Origin: Escherichia coli
GTDB lineage: Bacteria > Pseudomonadota > Gammaproteobacteria > Enterobacterales > Enterobacteriaceae
Strand: one strand, 5' to 3'
Length of the DNA: 64,000 nucleotides
Assembly (NCBI RefSeq): GCF_050920415.1
Contig: NZ_CP169309.1
Position 1 is the first letter of the stretch. Every line of letters starts with the position of its first letter. The position numbers were made by a program, and so were the translations under genes. Of this stretch, positions 5,147-41,271 are shown in pieces. A model generated the notes under the pieces. The model did not search any database. It worked only from the letters and a program-made list of their open reading frames with translations, and was not told the DNA's origin.

Positions 5147-5331
5147 ACGCCACAATTCAAACGATACCAGAGCTTCTTATCCAGACACGAGGCAATCAGA
5201 CCGAAGTGGCGAGGATGCTTTCCTGCGCAAGAGGAACAGTGCTCAAGTACAACCGAGACAGCAAAGGCGAGCGTCACGTAATAGTTAACGGCGTCCTGAT
5301 GGTCAAACAGGGCAAAAGGGGAAGGCCATGA
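5143..5331 (+). CDS. ninH: NinH protein
   Basis: ..TIPELLIQTRGNQTEVARMLSCARGTVLKY.. resembles lambda NinH as recalled; ATGA overlap with rusA stop. Confidence 0.85.
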   Translation: MNATIQTIPELLIQTRGNQTEVARMLSCARGTVLKYNRDSKGERHVIVNGVLMVKQGKRGRP

Positions 5332-5951
5332 GACTAGAAAGCGTAGCTAAATTTCATTCGCCAAAAAGCCCGATGATGAGTGACTCACCACGGGCCACGG
5401 CTTCTGACTCTCTTTCCGGTACTGATGTGATGGCTGCTATGGGGATGGCGCAATCACAAGCCGGATTCGGAATGGCTGCATTCTGTGGTAAGCACGAACT
5501 CAGCCAGAACGACAAACAAAAGGCTATCAACTATCTGATGCAATTTGCACACAAGGTATCGGGGAAATACCGGGGTGTGGCAAAGCTCGAAGGAAATACT
5601 AAGGCAAAGGTACTGCAAGTGCTCGCAACATTCGCTTATGCTGATTATTGCCGTAGTGCCGCGACGCCGGGCGCAAGATGCAGAGATTGCCACGGTACAG
5701 GCCGTGCGGTTGATATAGCCAAAACAGAGCAGTGGGGGAGAGTTGTTGAGAAAGAGTGCGGAAGATGCAAAGGTGTCGGCTATTCAAGAATGCCAGCAAG
5801 CGCTGCATATCGCGCTGTAACGATGCTAATCCCAAACCTTACCCAACCCACCTGGTCACGCACTGTTAAGCCGCTGTATGACGCTCTGGTGGTGCAATGC
5901 CACAAAGAAGAGTCAATCGCAGACAACATTTTGAATGCGGTCACACGTTAG
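5328..5951 (+). CDS. Q: Late-gene antiterminator Q
   Basis: 207 aa; translation matches lambda Q as recalled (MRLESVAKFHSPKSPMMSDSPRATASDS...). Confidence 0.9.
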   Translation: MRLESVAKFHSPKSPMMSDSPRATASDSLSGTDVMAAMGMAQSQAGFGMAAFCGKHELSQNDKQKAINYLMQFAHKVSGKYRGVAKLEGNTKAKVLQVLATFAYADYCRSAATPGARCRDCHGTGRAVDIAKTEQWGRVVEKECGRCKGVGYSRMPASAAYRAVTMLIPNLTQPTWSRTVKPLYDALVVQCHKEESIADNILNAVTR

Positions 5952-5993
5952 CAGCATGATTGCCACGGATGGCAACATATTAACGGCATGATA

Positions 5994-6022
5994 TTGACTT
6001 TTTGAATAAAGTTGGGTAAATT
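5994..6022 (+). promoter_or_regulatory. Late promoter pR' (-35 TTGACT, 17-bp spacer, -10 TAAATT) with adjacent qut region
   Basis: Sequence TTGACTTTTTGAATAAAGTTGGGTAAATT matches lambda pR' as recalled. Confidence 0.7.
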
Positions 6023-6056
6023 TGACTCAACGATGGATAAATGCACTCGTTAAATA

Positions 6057-6085
6057 AAGCCCTGAGTTAATAGCTGGGGCTTTTT
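6057..6085 (+). terminator. tR'-like terminator downstream of pR'
   Basis: Hairpin AGCCCT..GGGGCT followed by TTTTT. Confidence 0.55.
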
Positions 6086-6383
6086 GCGTTTTAAGCACGA
6101 CCTTTCTGAAAGCGCATCAAACCAAATACCAGACAGACCAAAATAATCACCTTATCCGCTGTGGCTACGGTGCGGTGTGCTTTGCATAAAAGAAAACCAG
6201 CTCAATGGCTGGCTTCGTGAAAGCGGGTGGCAAGAGGTTGCGCTAACAACCTCATGCCGTTTTGCCCGTGCATATCGGTCACGAACAAATCTGATTACTA
6301 AACACAGTAGCCTGGATTTGTTCTATCAGTAATCGACCTTATTCCTAATTAAATAGAGCAAATCCCCTTATTGGGGGTAAGAC

Positions 6384-6707
6384 ATGAAGATGCCAGAAAA
6401 ACATGACCTGTTAGCCGCCATTCTCGCGGCAAAGGAACAAGGCATCGGGGCAATCCTTGCGTTTGCAATGGCGTACCTTCGCGGCAGATATAATGGCGGT
6501 GCGTTTACAAAAACAGTAATCGACGCAACGATGTGCGCCATTATCGCCTGGTTCATTCGTGACCTTCTCGACTTCGCCGGACTAAGTAGCAATCTCGCTT
6601 ATATAACGAGCGTGTTCATCGGCTACATCGGTACTGACTCGATTGGTTCGCTTATCAAACGCTTCGCTGCTAAAAAAGCCGGAGTAGAAGATGGTGGAAA
6701 TCAATAA
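6384..6707 (+). CDS. S: Holin S (dual-start MKM)
   Basis: 107 aa; [34 protein letters not shown]... matches lambda S as recalled. Confidence 0.9.
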
Positions 6708-7167
6708 TCAACGTAAGGCGTTCCTCGATATGCTGGCGTGGTCAGAGGGAACTGATAACGGACGTCAGAAAACCAGAAATCATGGTTATGACGTCATTGT
6801 AGGCGGGGGGCTATTCACTGATTACTCCGATCACCCTCGCAAACTTGTCACGCTAAACCCCAAACTCAAATCAACAGCAGCCGGACGTTACCAGCTTCTT
6901 TCCCGTTGGTGGGATGCCTACCGCAAGCAGCTTGGCCTGAAAGACTTCTCTCCGAAAAGTCAGGACGCTGTGGCATTGCAGCAGATTAAGGAGCGTGGCG
7001 CTTTGCCGATGATTGATCGCGGTGATATTCGTCAGGCAATCGACCGTTGCAGCAATATCTGGGCTTCACTGCCGGGCGCTGGTTATGGCCAGTTCGAGCA
7101 TAAGGCTGACAGCCTGATTGCAAAATTCAAAGAAGCAGGCGGAACGGTTAGAGAGATTGAGGTATGA
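6691..7167 (+). CDS. R: Endolysin R (lytic transglycosylase)
   Basis: 158 aa; [39 protein letters not shown].. matches lambda R as recalled. Confidence 0.9.
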
Positions 7168-7601
7168 GCAGAGTCACCGCGATTATCTCCGCTCTGATTA
7201 TCTGCATCGTCGTCTGTCTGTCATGGGCGGTCAATCATTACCGTGATAACGCCATCGCCTACAAAGAACAGCGCGATAAGGCCGCATCCACAATCGCTGA
7301 CATGCAGAAGCGTCAACGTGATGTAGCAGAACTTGACGCCAGATACACAAAGGAGCTTGCTGATGCTAATGCGACTATCGAAAGTCTCCGTGCTGATGTT
7401 TCTGCTGGTCGTAAGCGCCTGCAAGTCGCCGCCACCTGTGCAAAGTCAACGACCGGAGCCAACAGCATGGGCGATGGAGAAAGCCCAAGACTTACAGCAG
7501 ATGCTGAACTCAATTATTACCGTCTCAGAAGTGGAATCGACAAGATAACCGCGCAGGTTAACTACCTGCAGGAATACATCAGGACGCAATGCCTGAAATG
7601 A
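7164..7601 (+). CDS. Rz: Spanin inner-membrane subunit Rz
   Basis: 145 aa with N-terminal TM segment, directly after R. Confidence 0.85.
7363..7548 (+). CDS. Rz1: Spanin outer-membrane lipoprotein Rz1, embedded in +1 frame of Rz
   Basis: Embedded ORF with signal peptide and lipobox-like LLVVSAC followed by Pro-rich segment. Confidence 0.65.
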
Positions 7602-7635
7602 TGGGCGATGAAAACCAAAAAACAGGAGCAATACA

Positions 7636-7910
7636 TGACTAAGCTTTATCACCGCATCTCAACTTTTCTCTCTGGGTGCTGGGCGTTTATCACGTCTATT
7701 TCGTTCGCCATCTTTAGTTTCGGTAGCACAGCATGCTCGCTTAGTCGGGGTATGTGGCGTGCTATTTCAGCACTAGCGCCGAAATTTTTACCTGAAAAGG
7801 CTGTTTGGCGAATTGTAGAGCGAATGTGTAGTGAGAGCGTTCGCGAGAAGATTAACGTATTTGGGCGTCATCCTCGAAATACAGGCGCATTGTGCAGTTC
7901 GTTACTGTAG
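7636..7910 (+). CDS. Hypothetical small membrane protein (91 aa)
   Basis: ATG 7 nt downstream of AGGAG; hydrophobic segment FLSGCWAFITSISFAIFSF; no recognised family. Confidence 0.3.
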
Positions 7911-8139
7911 TCATTACAAAGCCCATCAATGGGTGGGCTTGATAATGAAACCGGAATTTATTCTGGGCCACCAGTTAACGGCAGTACAGCGAAACAACCC
8001 AAGCCAGTAAGTGGGGAAATAACACTGGCAGCCACTGAAAGATGAACCTCCTGCCTTATGGCAAAAAAGATTCTTTGTGGTGGCGGACTGATGGAAAGAC
8101 ATCCACTGAATCGATGATAAACAAGTGGAATAGGTTGCG

Positions 8140-8310
8140 ATGGTTTCCGTGAACAAAGATCCGAAGGAAGGCGTTGAATACATCACTGGTGCTGATGGTG
8201 TGAAAAGGCCAATGGCTTATTACAAAGCTGCTGAAGAGAGGGCAAGAATGGAAAATCCCCCTAAATGCGGATCATTTTTCGACATGCTGGACCTTCAATG
8301 GAAGTTGTGA
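8140..8310 (+). CDS. Hypothetical small protein (56 aa)
   Basis: ORF MVSVNKDPKEGVEYITGADGVKRPMAYYKAAEERARMENPPKCGSFFDMLDLQWKL followed 10 nt later by a hairpin+T-run terminator; weak SD. Confidence 0.3.
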   Translation: MVSVNKDPKEGVEYITGADGVKRPMAYYKAAEERARMENPPKCGSFFDMLDLQWKL

Positions 8311-8319
8311 ACAACTAAC

Positions 8320-8344
8320 AGGTCGCTCAGGCGGCCTTTTTTAT
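8320..8344 (+). terminator. Rho-independent terminator
   Basis: AGGTCGC-TCAG-GCGGCCT stem (one G-U) followed by TTTTTTA. Confidence 0.5.
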
Positions 8345-8449
8345 TGCCATCACAAAAGCCATTCCCTACATAGTGGCTTTGATAATGGCTTATACCCTAC
8401 ACGGGATAACTTAACTGATATCCCTTTTAACGGATAAACGGAGCCAACA

Positions 8450-8692
8450 ATGGCAGAGATTATTCCCATGACTGAAGAACAGAAGTTCAAGTTAGAAATT
8501 TACCGACTGCTATCTAAGAACAATTCAGCGGCAGAGGAAGCTTTTGCATTCATTGGTGCTGACCAACTGAAACTGGAATTGTTCAAGTTGCACTACAACG
8601 ATGGCGGTGCAAATCCAGACTTCACATCTCGCACTATCGAAGCGGTGCGTAAATCGAAGGAAGCGTTAGACCTGTTCACTACCGGAGCATAA
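8450..8692 (+). CDS. Conserved hypothetical phage protein upstream of small terminase (80 aa)
   Basis: Good SD GGAG; 80 aa; position and length like the small ORF preceding gene 3 in P22-like phages (from memory). Confidence 0.55.
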   Translation: MAEIIPMTEEQKFKLEIYRLLSKNNSAAEEAFAFIGADQLKLELFKLHYNDGGANPDFTSRTIEAVRKSKEALDLFTTGA

Positions 8693-8771
8693 ACATGGCA
8701 ACTCAAGGTTTCGACAACCCATCCAAATTCCGCGATGAATGGGATAAGCAAGCAGAAGGGAAATAATCAAT

Positions 8772-9260
8772 ATGGCAGCACCAAAGGGCAACCGATTTTG
8801 GGAGGCCCGCAGTAGTCATGGGCGAAATCCTAAATTCGAATCGCCTGAGGCGCTGTGGGCTGCTTGTTGTGAATACTTCGAGTGGGTGGAAGCTAACCCG
8901 CTATGGGAGATGAAGGCGTTCTCGTATCAGGGTGAAGTAATACAAGAGCCTATCGCCAAGATGCGAGCGATGACCATTACCGGCCTCACTCTGTTCATTG
9001 ATGTGACGCTTGAAACATGGCGCACATATCGCCTGCGAGAAGATTTATCTGAAGTCGTTACGCGAGCAGAACAGGTCATCTACGACCAGAAATTCTCTGG
9101 CGCAGCCGCTGACCTTCTCAACGCTAACATCATCGCCCGTGATTTGGGCCTCAAAGAGCAGTCGCAAGTTGAAGACGTGACACCTGATAAGGGAGATCGC
9201 GATAAGCGGCGCTCTCGTATCAAGGAGCTATTCAACCGTGGAACTGGACGCGATTCTTGA
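8772..9260 (+). CDS. Terminase small subunit (P22 gp3-like)
   Basis: 162 aa; matches P22 gp3 length and position as recalled. Confidence 0.85.
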
Positions 9261-10737
9261 TAACCTGAGCGACGAAGAGCAAATCGAGTTGCTCGAGCTA
9301 CTCGAAGAAGAAGAGAACTACCGGAACACACACCTGCTATATGAATTTACGCCATACAGCAAGCAGCGTGAGTTCATCGACGCCGGGCATGACTATCCAG
9401 AGCGATGTTTTATGGCTGGTAACCAGCTTGGTAAGTCATTTACTGGTGCTGCTGAAGTCGCGTTTCACCTTACCGGTCGTTATCCGGGCACAAAAGGCTA
9501 TCCTGCTGATGGTAAATATGGCGGTGAGTGGAAAGGTAAGCGTTTCTATGAGCCTGTTGTCTTCTGGATTGGTGGAGAGACAAACGAGACTGTAACCAAA
9601 ACGACTCAACGCATCCTGTGCGGTCGTATCGAAGAGAATGGTGAGCCAGGCTACGGTTCCATACCGAAAGAAGACATCATTAGCTGGAAGAAGTCTCCTT
9701 TCTTTCCGAACCTTGTTGATCATCTTCTGGTTAAGCATCACACGGCTGATGGCGTTGAAGATGGCATTTCAATCTGCTACTTCAAACCATACTCGCAAGG
9801 CCGTGCTCGCTGGCAGGGTGACACAATCCACGGCGTGTGGTTTGACGAAGAGCCACCATACAGCATTTATGGCGAAGGTCTTACCCGTACCAACAAATAC
9901 GGGCAATTCTCAATTCTGACGTTTACCCCGCTGATGGGGATGTCTGACGTTGTTACCAAGTTCCTGAAGAATCCCAGCAAGTCTCAGAAAGTGGTCAACA
10001 TGACCATCTATGACGCTGAGCACTACACCGACGAGCAGAAAGAGCAAATCATCGCATCCTATCCTGAGCATGAGAGAGAGGCGCGTGCTCGCGGTATTCC
10101 TACGATGGGTAGTGGTCGAATCTTCCAGATACCGGAAGAGACGATTAAGTGTCAGCCGTTCGAGTGTCCTGATCACTTCTACGTAATTGGCGGTATGGAT
10201 TTCGGATGGGATCACCCGCAGGCGCAGGTTCAGCTTTGGTGGGATAAGGACGCAGACATAATCTACCTTTCACGCGTTTGGAAGGCGAAAGAAAAGACAG
10301 CCGTTCAGGCGTGGGGAGCTGTTAAACCATGGGCGCATAAAGTGCCAACCGCATGGCCTCATGACGGAAACCAGCACGAGAAGGGCGGCGGTGAGCAGCT
10401 CAAAGGGCAGTATGCGGACGCTGGATTTATGATGTTGCAGGAGCATGCGACATGGCCTGATGGCGGTAACGCTGTTGAGCCTGGCATCACTGAATTGCGA
10501 GACATGATGCTCGACGGTCGCTTCAAAGTATTCAACACCTGTGAGCCATTCTTTGAGGAGTTCCGCCTCTATCACCGTGATGAAAACGGGAAAATCGTCA
10601 AGCTTAACGACGACGTGCTATCCGCCGTTCGCTATGCATACATGATGCGCCGCTTCGCAAAAATGATGCGCGACATCAAAAAGCCAAAAGAGAAAAAGAT
10701 ACCAGCCCCAATCAGGCCCATCGCACGGAGAACTTAA
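9238..10737 (+). CDS. Terminase large subunit (P22 gp2-like)
   Basis: 499 aa; position between small terminase and portal. Confidence 0.85.
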
Positions 10738-12903
10738 ATGGCCGACGAAAACAGACTCAATTCCATTCTGTGTAAGTTTGACGCAGACTGGATGGCGAGC
10801 GATGAAGCCAGAACCGAGGCGACAAATGACCTGTATTTTAGCCGAGTGTCGCAATGGGATGACTGGCTATCAAACTACACCACCCTGCAATATCGCGGAC
10901 AATTCGATGTTGTTCGCCCGGTGGTCAGGAAGCTGGTCGCAGAGATGCGCCGGAACCCTATCGATGTTCTCTTCAGACCAAAAGACGGCGCTAATCCTGA
11001 TGCTGCCGATGTGCTGATGGGGATGTATCGTACTGATATGCGCCATAATACGGCAAAAATTGCCGTTAACGTTGGCGTTCGTGAGCAGATAGAGTCAGGC
11101 GTTGGTGCATGGCGTCTGGTCACGCAGTACGAAGACAACGATCCAACAAGCAACAATCAGGTAATCCGACGCCTGCCAATCCATGAAGCCTGCTCACACG
11201 TCATATGGGACGCCAACAGCAAGCAGATGGATAAGAGCGACGCTAAGCACTGCACGGTGATTAACGCCTTGTCGCGCAATGGCTGGAAAGAGTTCGCAGA
11301 GGATTACGGTATTGATCCGGACACGCTGCCATCTTTCCAGAATCCAAACGATACATGGCTGTTTCCGTGGGTATCGAATGATGTCGTCTACGTCGCTGAG
11401 TATTACGAGGTCGAAGAGAAGAAAGAGAAAGTCTTCATCTACCGCGACCCGCTGACAGGTGAGCCGGTCAGCTATTACCAGCAGGATATCAAAGACGTCA
11501 TCGACGACCTGGCTAATCGTGGATTCATTAAGGTAGCAGAGCGCAAGGTGAAGCGTCGGCGTGTGTATAAGTCGATCGTCACCTGCACGCAGATACTGAA
11601 AGACCGCGAGAAGATAGCCGGAGAGCATATTCCAATCGTTCCAGTATATGGCGAATGGTCATTCGCTGGTGACAAGGAGTGCTACGAAGGAGTGGTAAGG
11701 CTGACGAAAGACGGTCAACGCCTTCGTAACATGATCATGTCATTCAACGCCGATATTGTTGCTCGTTCACCGAAGAAGAAACCGACCTTCTTCCCTGAGC
11801 AAATCGAAGGCTACGAATACATGTACGGTGGAAATGATGACTATCCGTACTATCTGCAGAACAGGACCGATGAAAACGGCAACGACCTGCCGATTGGTCC
11901 AATCTCCTACATGGAAAACCCTGAAGTGCCGCAAGCCAACGCTTACATGCTTGAGGCTGCCACCAACGCAGTGAAAGAGGTGGCTAGTCTTGGTGTGGAT
12001 GCGCAGGCAGCAAACTCTCAGGTCGCTTTCGATACCGTCAATCAACTGAACATGCGGGCAGACCTTGAGACATACGTGTTTCAGGATAACCTTGCTACCG
12101 CAATGCGACGTGATGGCGAGATTTATGCTTCAATGGTCAATGATATTTATGACGTTCCTCGTCATGTAACGCTGACACTTGAAGATGGTAGCGAGAAAGA
12201 CGTTCAACTCTACGCGCAAGTTGTAGATTACCAGTCCGGTAATGTGGTCACACTCAACGACATTCGCGGTCGCTATGAGTGCTATACCGACGTTGGACCA
12301 TCCTTCCAGAGTATGAAGGAACAGAACCGCGCAGAGATTCAGGAGTTACTCACCAAGGTTCCGCAAGGTACTCCAGAGTTCCAGATGCTGATGTTGCAAT
12401 ACTTCACGCTGCTTGACGGTAAAGGCGTCGAGATGATGCGAGAGTACGCGAACAAGCAACTGGTGATGATGTGGCTGAAGAAACCAGAAACACCTGAAGA
12501 GATGGAGATGGTGCAACAGGCGCAACAGCAGCCGCAGCAGCCATCAGCAGAGCAAATTCAGGCGCAGGGTATCCTTCTGCAAGGTCAGGCTGAATTGATC
12601 AAGGCAGAGAACCAACAGGCGCAGATTCAGGTTGAAGCCGCCAAGGTTGAAGCCCAAAACCAACTCAACGCCGCGAAGATTGCAGAAATCTTCAACAATA
12701 TGGACCTCGACAAGCAGGCAGAACTGCGTGAGTACCTCAAGCTCGTAGGTCAATTCCAGCAACAGCGCAGCAAAGATGCTCGTGCTAACGCTGAGCTGCT
12801 TCTTAAAGATGCAGACCAGACTCATTCACAACGCATGGATTTCGCGAATCTTATGCGTCAAGTTCAAATCCCCTCCGGCGGAGTAGCCGAGACACCTCAA
12901 TAA
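10738..12903 (+). CDS. Portal protein (P22 gp1-like)
   Basis: 721 aa; translation closely matches recalled P22 portal (..[30 protein letters not shown]..). Confidence 0.95.
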
Positions 12904-40724: not shown

Positions 40725-41271
40725 AAGCTCATATGCCCGGTTGCGTACGCGTATACCGGGCAAATTTTTTCTGTCCTAATTGTGATCATATTTTACATAT
40801 CACGAATTTTATTATCTTTCTTGTTATTGAAACTGGTAATAACACAGTGGAATAATGGTTTTGTATCTTGAATATATATTAATTAATTTAATTGAGATTT
40901 AATCTTATCAATAAATAATTGCAAAATCATTATAAATTATCTCAGTGGTTTTTATATTCAATGCATTCACATTGATTATGATGTCTTTTCTTTTTTTTGA
41001 TAATGCGCATGTTTTTTTATTGAAAAGCGAGTGAGATATTCTGGTTGTGTATTGATTAATTAAATCTACATAAAGTCTTTAAGTATTGCTACATTGATTA
41101 TTTTTAAGGATAAGACCAACATAACGACACACCAGAGAATATCTGTTTACATTCTATGATTATTTGGGACATATGATGTTCAATGGTTAACTAAAAGCGT
41201 CAGACATAATATATACAATAATATTATGTCAGTTGCTTGTATTATACATTTTAATGATTTAAGGACAAATA

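Follow-up and report, generated by a model that had tools for sequence, protein, structure and literature searches.

Conserved stem-loops of REP-like plan at the cassette borders of the lysis-packaging cargo slot in lambdoid phages

The stretch of Escherichia coli DNA analysed here (contig NZ_CP169309.1 of assembly GCF_050920415.1; 64,000 nucleotides, called the window below) contains between positions 5300 and 12900 the late region of a P22/HK620-like lambdoid prophage, in which a Q-like gene is followed by the genes for holin, endolysin and Rz, a cargo interval, orf80, and the genes for the small and large terminase subunits and the portal. The subject of this study is a hairpin element that occurs twice within the cargo interval. 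From left to right the interval is made up of Rz, a first cargo gene (orf91), a hairpin of type A, a conserved block without apparent coding function, a second cargo cassette (orf56 and its terminator), a hairpin of type C, a leader and orf80. These features are the following.

7164..7601, + strand: Rz spanin gene with embedded Rz1, an open reading frame (ORF) of 145 aa; conserved left border of the cargo slot.
7635..7910, + strand: orf91 (cargo 1), an ORF preceded by AGGAG; phrog_34701.
7907..7948, + strand: hairpin copy 1, type A, GTAG included; recognized by inverted repeat, fold, covariance model, covariation and GTAG enrichment.
7949..8104, + strand: conserved block, predicted to be non-coding; delimited by comparison of phage loci.
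8105..8139, + strand: 5' untranslated stretch of the cargo 2 cassette; delimited by insert clustering and common to the DUF551 cassette of other phages.
8140..8310, + strand: orf56 (cargo 2), an ORF; phrog_5425; annotated by PGAP in NZ_OZ546925.
8320..8344, + strand: intrinsic terminator of the cargo 2 cassette, canonical; the same terminator stands in the DUF551 cassette.
8347..8388, + strand: hairpin copy 2, type C; recognized by inverted repeat, fold and covariance model.
8389..8449, + strand: conserved leader; found by inverted repeat scan and locus comparison.
8450..8692, + strand: orf80 (DUF2560; PF10834, E 5e-37); conserved right border, 5' of the terminase genes.

The preliminary description of the interval, made from the window alone, had drawn attention to two hairpins with stems of 7 bp, each followed by GATAATG. 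Both are present: AAGCCCA (7919-7925) pairs with TGGGCTT (7934-7940) directly 5' of GATAATG at 7941-7947, and AAAGCCA (8355-8361) pairs with TGGCTTT (8374-8380) directly 5' of GATAATG at 8381-8387. GATAATG itself is the 3' strand of an extended stem, its partners being CATTAC (7912-7917) and CATCAC (8348-8353), which lie upstream across a 2x2 mismatch. Copy 1 extends from 7911 to 7948, with the lower stem TCATTA (7911-7916)/TAATGA (7943-7948), an internal loop CA (7917-7918)/GA (7941-7942) and an apical loop at 7926-7933. It is preceded by the tag GTAG (7907-7910), whose TAG is the stop codon of orf91, and from the tag onwards it reads GTAG TCATTA CA AAGCCCA TCAATGGG TGGGCTT GA TAATGA. Copy 2 extends from 8347 to 8388, with the lower stem CCATCA (8347-8352)/TAATGG (8383-8388), an internal loop CA (8353-8354)/GA (8381-8382) and an apical loop at 8362-8373. 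The plan common to all copies comprises a lower stem of 6 bp, a conserved 2x2 internal loop (CA/GA) and an upper stem of 7-10 bp, 38-42 nt overall. The two motifs are two copies of one element, and the GTAG tag, the internal loop and the resemblance to repetitive extragenic palindromes (REPs) discussed below are additions to what had been described.

Measured against shuffled controls, the extended fold has an energy of -20.4 kcal/mol (z -5.75) in copy 1 and -17.6 kcal/mol (z -3.95) in copy 2. A covariance model of the whole element scores 56.3 bits (E 3e-12) for copy 1 and 49.6 bits (E 2e-10) for copy 2, and since the next best score in the 64-kb window is 17.7 bits, the two reported sites are its only matches. 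The 9-mer TTGATAATG is found four times in the window as compared to 0.72 occurrences expected, its other two copies at 40997 and 47767 being unrelated to the element. A perfect 13-bp hairpin (TTTCACCGACCAG TTAG CTGGTCGGTGAAA) lies at 47735-47775 between a fimbrial-like ORF and smrB, with TTGATAATG following 8 nt later. It gives no match to the covariance model and looks like a bidirectional terminator, and its TTGATAATG is taken as a chance occurrence.

Comparison among phages indicates that the fold of the element is conserved. Covariation was computed on 26 distinct sequences, element copies having been collected from related HK97-like, P22-like and Shiga toxin (Stx) phages, about 470 in all. 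In these 26 sequences 95% of the cells are paired, and in five of the 13 pairs both partners have changed. The covariation score amounts to 0.386 versus 0.235 in shuffles, none of 500 of which reached it, and in controls with slid partners pairing falls to 27-54%. There are four sequence types with upper stems that are different yet fully complementary, namely AAGCCCA/TGGGCTT in type A, GAGRCCA/TGGYCTC in type B, AAAGCCA/TGGCTTT in type C and GAAGCCC/GGGCTTC in type D, and the lower stem likewise compensates (ATTA/TAAT versus ATTG/CAAT). The three main types are only about 65-70% identical to one another and thus old; nonetheless all of them fold. The internal loop is the most uniform part: when copies were gathered by their 3' flank alone, so that pairing was not required, CA/GA was found in 344 of 353 despite the differing stems.

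Several features distinguish the two strands. Imperfections of the upper stem, read on the + strand, are G.U in 142 cells and A.C in six. The loops of 201 out of 281 type A copies read C(UNCG)G on the + strand, and of 76 distinct variants 66 have the more stable RNA fold on that strand (-17.4 versus -12.9 kcal/mol). The same preference is seen in the consensus fold of hairpin A, block and hairpin B taken together, whose energy is -71.3 kcal/mol for the + strand as compared to -52.8 for the - strand. All this suggests that selection acts on the sense strand, most naturally at the level of the late mRNA. A loop that stays unpaired and conserved, taken together with the GTAG tag, suggests that a protein recognizes the element, and for this reason both a processing site of the RNase III type and a single-strand DNA site for a Y1/HUH enzyme are kept as rivals below.

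The element appears to be confined to one place. A model scan of 868 kb from 100 related loci, with matches of at least 44.7 bits regarded as strong, returned 176 strong matches, and all 176 lie in the slot between Rz and the packaging genes in the same orientation as the late genes. No score fell between 17.7 and 44.7 bits, and no copy was located outside the slot. Lambdoid phages that carry the element have one or two copies, invariably in sense orientation, and these were found nowhere but in the stretch that separates the lysis cassette from the packaging genes. Type A occurs as a single copy in about 147 lambdoid phage records; it is present in 1379 of 5426 complete E. coli genomes (about a quarter), at a median of one and a maximum of four places per genome. 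The interval as such has matches in 202 phage records and in prophages of 2553 of the 5426 genomes (about half), while the full arrangement of the window recurs in only two of them. Scanning one genome per species for the block gave eight matches, which fall to E. coli, Shimwellia and contigs of metagenome bins and add no diversity.

Locus sets were assembled by three routes: about 125 loci through the block pattern, 80 through orf80, a choice that does not favour loci with the block, and 120 through the junction of hairpin A and leader. They share a recurrent plan, in which Rz and an optional cargo 1 are followed by hairpin A, about 65 nt and a core block of 126 nt ending in GGAAAGACATC. Next comes either hairpin B or cargo 2 with hairpin C, and the right end is formed by the leader (GCTTATACCC...) and orf80 or a truncated orf80 plus an HNH gene. 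Hairpin B is confined to empty sites that lack cargo 2, and hairpin C to positions after cargo. Of 76 informative loci anchored on orf80, 71 have the block. It is absent from more than 120 loci, Stx phages among them, in which hairpin A is joined straight to the leader; an example is locus L219, where orf91 and hairpin A adjoin the leader directly. Seven of the nine cargo 1 contexts of block-less loci occur also with the block. The unit of block plus hairpin B, about 195 bp, is therefore an insertion or deletion with direct hairpin copies at its ends, and it does not depend on cargo 1. The preliminary description had the two hairpins bracketing the whole interval; they do bracket the block and the orf56 cassette, and orf91 lies upstream of the first of them.

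On its left side type A adjoins at least 14 unrelated sequences, and in most of these contexts the last in-frame stop codon lies 0-17 nt before the stem. Of 28 upstream contexts, 10 (about seven of which are unrelated) have GTAG immediately before the stem, as compared to a background of 0.0021 per position. Its TAG is the stop codon of orf91, gp73/hkbL, Gp49 and other genes, and is out of frame in one context. The hairpins stand exactly at the junctions of variable and conserved DNA, so that the earlier suggestion of insertion boundaries is upheld by the comparison with other lambdoid phages and prophages: as judged from aligned loci, the element marks the points at which cassettes differ. 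Two deletion derivatives have their joints within hairpins. At locus L208 (2389-2439) the left half of type A is fused to the right half of type C, with loss of block and cargo, and at locus L159 (2350-2440) only the first 9 nt of hairpin A (CATTACAAA) are kept and joined to the terminator and hairpin C of another cassette. In P22, hairpin A is absent and rha extends into the block at its left end, close to window position 7965. A joint at the foot of hairpin A was considered for this phage and dismissed, as the actual one lies about 20-25 nt further in.

Insert clustering divides cargo 2 into four families, which are Gp49_66 (PF13876), orf56, a DUF551 gene with the same 5' leader and terminator as orf56, and a micro-ORF of 23 aa. 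To the right of cargo 2 or of hairpin B, the leader contributes a weak hairpin of its own (GGGATA, 8403-8408; TATCCC, 8419-8424; loop of 10 nt) followed by TTTT, and the Shine-Dalgarno sequence of orf80 (GGAG, 8440-8443) also lies inside it. Nearly all loci, those of Stx phages without orf80 among them, have the leader hairpin along with the main one; the leader is found with hairpins B and C and, in block-less phages, with hairpin A, and at least 55 nt of it are kept in 110 of 112 block-less loci. Cos-type phages resembling HK97 (L010, 2517-2597; L002, about 1800-1900) retain only the first ~80 nt of orf80, after which comes the HNH endonuclease gene (gp74). The segment common to pac-type and cos-type phages thus runs from the block into the start of orf80.

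The block consists of a small hairpin (7951-7966) and the core (7979-8104), which always ends in GGAAAGACATC, and together with one hairpin it is present or absent as a unit of about 195 bp. It is 89-100% identical across 185 phage records, a figure that is in part an ascertainment effect, because the loci had been picked by an exact match inside the block, and that to this extent detracts from the interpretation given below. A conservation profile taken as evidence of selection on the block was discarded because of this biased sample; the orf80-anchored loci confirm the presence of the block and not its constraint. Nor is the block likely to be a protein gene. The candidate frames (7926-8186 on the - strand; 7929 and 8042 on the + strand) show indels in a G-run and no codon periodicity, and the ATG at 8042 is ATA in HK140, HK022 and mEp235; judged by these patterns, the block is non-coding. 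Short ORFs starting at 7927 and 8042 had been interpreted previously as remnants of a decayed gene. The start at 8042 exists and the other one is at 7929, and the DNA in question proves to be mostly the conserved block, of which only the left ~15 nt match the 3' end of P22 rha. As the block directly follows rha in P22, it may be an orphaned 3' untranslated region. Identification with a known small RNA was likewise abandoned, since there is no match in Rfam and the table of the BTP1 transcriptome lists no non-coding RNA between rha and pid. In Rfam, positions 7000-9000 yielded at E <= 1 only a chance match to Atu_C8 (20.5 bits versus a gathering score of 50), and the small RNAs AgvB and AsxR at the pR' site and the Pas small RNA preprint, which is silent on the region, provide no identity for the block.

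The genes carried in the slot differ widely among phages, and in this respect the interval is moron-like, as had been proposed, that is, a hot spot of accessory genes in P22, BTP1, HK620, HK97 and prophages. HK97 has gp73 at this place and HK140 the 91-aa ORF of the window; HK620 has the KilA-N gene hkbK together with hkbL, and Stx phages a KilA-N/hkbL pair; P22 and BTP1 have rha and, in reverse orientation, pid; Huey and many prophages have a gene of the Gp49 family, and other prophages the DUF551 gene. The left border is constant, the equivalent of Rz being annotated as Rz or lysis protein in HK140, HK97, Huey and E. coli prophages. In the record of Huey (L003, 1732-2112) the Gp49_66-family gene (PF13876) carries the label 'anti-CRISPR protein'; the corresponding PHROGs families are without known function.

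Of the two cargo genes in the window, orf91 (phrog_34701, E 2e-55; HK140_069 in the HK140 annotation) was correctly described as a 91-aa ORF with a strong ribosome-binding site (AGGAG, 7624-7628) and a single hydrophobic stretch (one predicted membrane segment; Kyte-Doolittle peak of 1.69 over residues 11-29), except that its ATG is at 7635 instead of 7636. It is intact in 13 of 13 copies, and its variant sites (four synonymous, seven non-synonymous) lend weak support to coding. The 56-aa ORF at 8140-8310 and the terminator at 8320-8344 were found as described; orf56 (phrog_5425, E 9e-41) shows a coding pattern, with seven synonymous and four non-synonymous variants and nine of 11 at codon position 3. 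For comparison, orf80 has 25 synonymous and six non-synonymous sites. No match to orf91 or orf56 was obtained in Pfam, NCBIfam or PADLOC, and defence and naming libraries returned nothing for orf91, orf56 or orf80.

A moron in the sense of Juhala et al. (2000) is an extra gene between conserved genes that has its own promoter and its own factor-independent terminator. Both orf91 and orf56 are extra genes, since related phages have other genes, or none, in their place. A terminator of its own (stem AGGTCGC..GCGGCCT, 8320-8337, followed by the T-run TTTTTTATTG in the terminator scan) is present behind orf56 and not behind orf91, which is followed by hairpin A only. A consensus scan of positions 6300-9400 revealed no sigma-70-like promoter on the + strand, and because no promoter-like site was found neither ORF fits the full textbook definition; judging from their arrangement, both are probably expressed within the late operon. 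The pid locus of P22 and BTP1, which has been studied as a moron locus (PMC3573128, PMC8835761), and bor of lambda occupy the same slot after Rz and likewise are accessory genes that differ among otherwise similar phages. In P22 the same block and a type B hairpin are present, with pid inserted just after them. By contrast, orf91 and orf56 are unrelated to pid, rha and bor and lie on the sense strand without a promoter-like site. The two papers on pid describe neither the hairpins nor the block.

In its plan the element resembles the REPs of E. coli, which are described as imperfect palindromes with GTAG in front and a conserved 2x2 mismatch inside (PMC8266576). In REPs and in many copies of the element an unpaired GTAG stands 5' of an imperfect palindrome of 30-40 nt (38-42 nt and 13 pairs in the element), the mismatch is conserved in mid-stem (CA/GA in the element, AA/GC in E. 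coli REPs), and both are strand-specific and located just downstream of genes that use the TAG of the tag as stop codon. A true REP is available for comparison in the window at 53113 (GTAG GTCGGAT AA GGCG TTCA CGCC GC ATCCGAC); genuine REPs and bacterial interspersed mosaic elements (BIMEs) lie in the host part at 53067-53250 and 56651-56690 and by themselves identify the host as E. coli or a very close relative. There are, on the other hand, clear differences. Beyond GTAG, which many copies lack, there is no sequence similarity, and the element is present at one or two copies per phage and a median of one per E. coli genome as compared to hundreds of REPs. The more than 100 dispersed and often inverted copies that are typical of REPs were not found, all copies in the 868 kb being direct and inside the slot; the element never forms inverted pairs of the BIME or REPIN kind and is confined to a single lambdoid slot. 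The resemblance therefore is one of plan and not of sequence, and in the absence of high copy number and dispersal we call the element REP-like and do not file it as a REP family. The REP-associated tyrosine transposase (RAYT), TnpA_REP, enters as a candidate enzyme in one of the rival readings below.

We propose that the element is a REP-like RNA hairpin of the sense strand that is placed at cistron ends and also serves as a breakpoint for the gain and loss of cassettes, a reading that we give about an even chance of being correct. REPs reportedly exert their effect within about 15 nt of the stop codon (Liang, Rudd and Deutscher 2015). The element would fold in the Q-antiterminated late mRNA 0-17 nt after the stop codon of most cargo cistrons, where, like REP hairpins, it might act as a barrier to 3' exonucleases and/or as a brake on termination and thereby adjust how strongly the upstream cistron is expressed. 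As direct repeats, the copies would at the same time be the points at which cassettes, the block included, are gained, lost or swapped, and genome comparison does locate such changes there. Effects of REPs on mRNA stability have been described (PMC3733652).

Several observations weigh against this proposal. GTAG is missing from copy 2 in the window, a type C hairpin, and from type B, and the low copy number sets the element apart from true REPs. Moreover, a simple exonuclease barrier would need neither a conserved unpaired internal loop nor a GTAG tag. The count of 142 G.U versus six A.C cells overstates the number of independent events, because the copies are related by descent; when kinds of change are counted, the ratio is 8 to 4, which is not significant (p = 0.39). 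G.T pairs are also tolerated in single-stranded DNA, so that a role at the DNA level stays compatible with the strand bias, and it is from substitution patterns that the role in RNA is deduced.

Such a DNA-level role would exist if the folded + strand were a single-strand recombination site that is cut by a Y1/HUH enzyme, either host TnpA_REP (RAYT) or a phage factor, with hairpin-ended cassettes being inserted or excised at the foot of another hairpin as in integron attC sites. We regard this as unlikely, even though GTAG and the 2x2 bulge are the two features that E. coli TnpA_REP needs on single-stranded REP DNA (PMC8266576). Both junctions are precise, with the stem following straight after the cargo stop codon or GTAG on the left, and with AATG followed by AAACC of the block or GCTTAT of the leader on the right. 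Furthermore, the copies bounding the ~195-bp indel are a poor substrate for homologous recombination at 65-70% identity, and every architecture seen has as many hairpins as cassette-like units. However, similarity to E. coli REPs ends at GTAG and the lower stem is one pair shorter; hairpin B and many hairpin C contexts lack the tag; cargo 2 always lies inside the block unit and never forms its own; an RNA-level role accounts better for the strict sense orientation and for the UNCG loops; and the hybrid joints of L208 and L159 lie within the hairpin and not at its foot. To our knowledge, no Y1 transposase is known in HK97, P22 or HK620. The wider idea of the lambdoid late operon as a small integron-like cassette system, its hairpin being processed by a domesticated host TnpA_REP or a phage factor of the Y1/HUH type, appears to us a long shot; if true, it would provide a dedicated molecular mechanism for part of phage mosaicism, with cassettes captured, excised and shuffled at precise positions. 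Integron cassettes also end in an imperfect palindrome with unpaired bases and precise foot junctions, in which structure is conserved over sequence. The core sites of attC are RYYYAAC and GTTRRRY, whereas the element ends in YCATTR ... YAATGR, no integrase ORF was found in 5300-12900 and no attI nearby, and the system has one or two units only, with cargo 2 sharing a unit with the block. At the RNA level, the helix of about 16 bp could be cut by an enzyme of the RNase III type in the late polycistronic mRNA, so that the part of the message for lysis and cargo would decay independently of the part for packaging and head, in the manner of intercistronic sites of T7 or of sib of lambda. In favour of this are the intercistronic position in a long late operon and the shape of the sense-strand helix, in which a conserved internal loop separates two stems, and the variability of the flanking modules makes a host factor likelier than a phage factor. 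We nevertheless consider it decidedly unlikely, since typical RNase III substrates span about two turns and the helix here is shorter, and since the GTAG tag would be left without explanation. A borderline related hairpin after the gene at capsid position in phiKMV-like Pectobacterium phages, described further below, would speak in favour of an RNase III site, although its match is not significant database-wide. Known intercistronic mRNA hairpins, namely the RNase III sites of phage T7, the sib retroregulator of lambda and the REP stabilizers in the malE-malF operon, are likewise sense-strand stem-loops with an internal loop that lie between operon cistrons directly after a stop codon; the element differs from them by its shorter helix and by the GTAG tag, which they lack.

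A transcription terminator is probably not what the element represents. It could be thought of as a weak, possibly bidirectional intrinsic terminator that stops Q-unmodified RNA polymerase between cargo and packaging genes, with the pairing of CATTACAAA and TTGATAATG being the usual complementarity of A-tract and U-tract. The order of A-rich sequence, GC stem and T-rich sequence has this form, TTTGTAATG or TTTTGTGAT comes after the stem when the - strand is read, another small hairpin with TTTT is contained in the leader, and internal terminators with an unclear role are known from late operons (PMC8022706). Yet neither hairpin was called by the terminator scan on either strand, there is no GC stem followed by a U-run (the tail is UUGAUAAUG), and at most two or three consecutive U residues follow the sense-strand stem. 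The canonical terminator ends only 2 nt before hairpin C in the window and lies a few nucleotides upstream of it in the DUF551 cassette as well, which would render hairpin C redundant, and the substitutions favour the fold of the + strand, whereas the better U-tract is on the - strand. In view of these points we judge this explanation very unlikely. The same low probability is attached to the idea that the copies are functionless scars or short 'linker' homologies that persist because phage recombination occurs in adjacent conserved DNA. All copies are indeed related and lie in a highly mosaic region, and diversity, which reaches its minimum around block, hairpin and leader, could have been lowered there by repeated recombination alone. 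What scars would not be expected to show are compensatory changes at five pairs, a constant unpaired internal loop and a strand-biased tolerance of wobble pairs, nor would main types that are only 65-70% identical, and hence old, all be expected to fold. Two further candidates were rejected. GATAAT is not a promoter -10 element, as it has neither a -35 nor an extended -10 sequence and was not called by the scan, and mimicry of CRISPR repeats, considered on account of the Huey label, was dropped because local alignments with type I-E and I-F repeats scored no better than those with shuffled repeats (p 0.19-0.35).

Our comparison thus reveals a conserved and covarying family of REP-like stem-loops at the cassette borders of the lysis-packaging cargo slot, which is more general than could be seen from a single window. 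It bears on the debate whether module exchange in lambdoid phages reflects random illegitimate joints filtered by selection or special linker sequences; a defined, structured element at the borders of the slot makes this question testable with few constructs. 'Linker' or boundary sequences are said to have been invoked for the modular evolution of these phages by Susskind and Botstein and, in the case of HK620, by Clark et al. (2001), works that PMC3233612, among others, cites. Like them, the element is a short conserved sequence at module junctions where exchange occurs; unlike them, it is structured and covarying and not a simple homology. No prior description of the hairpin was found in Rfam or in the literature searched. 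Likewise of interest is that the REP plan, a bulged palindrome with a GTAG tag, turns up at low copy number in phages. For annotation the element is a landmark, because any gene located between Rz and hairpin A, or in the stretch from the block to hairpin C, is a candidate accessory gene; to the known examples Pid, Rha, KilA-N, Gp49 and DUF551 the present case adds the uncharacterized orf91 and orf56.

Two minor observations concern related sequences elsewhere. One similar hairpin is carried by 37 lytic phiKMV-like Pectobacterium phages (Momine, MH807816.1: L339 701-734, L340 25527-25560), 6 nt past the stop codon of a gene at the position of the major capsid gene and about 20 nt before the next gene. 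It has the lower stem ATTA/TAAT, a CA/GA internal loop, an upper stem AAGCC../..GGCTT and a UUCG loop, and lacks GTAG. Its score in the covariance model is 30.4 bits (E 1.5e-5 in that genome), the database-wide BLAST E value being 0.6; a true relationship would favour a role at the RNA level. In the window itself, a micro-ORF of 23 aa is located at 8696-8767 between orf80 and the small terminase gene, and its paralogue MSAEGFNNPSKFRDEWDSSVKSK is the sole ORF of a 105-nt cargo 2 insert in 14 other loci.

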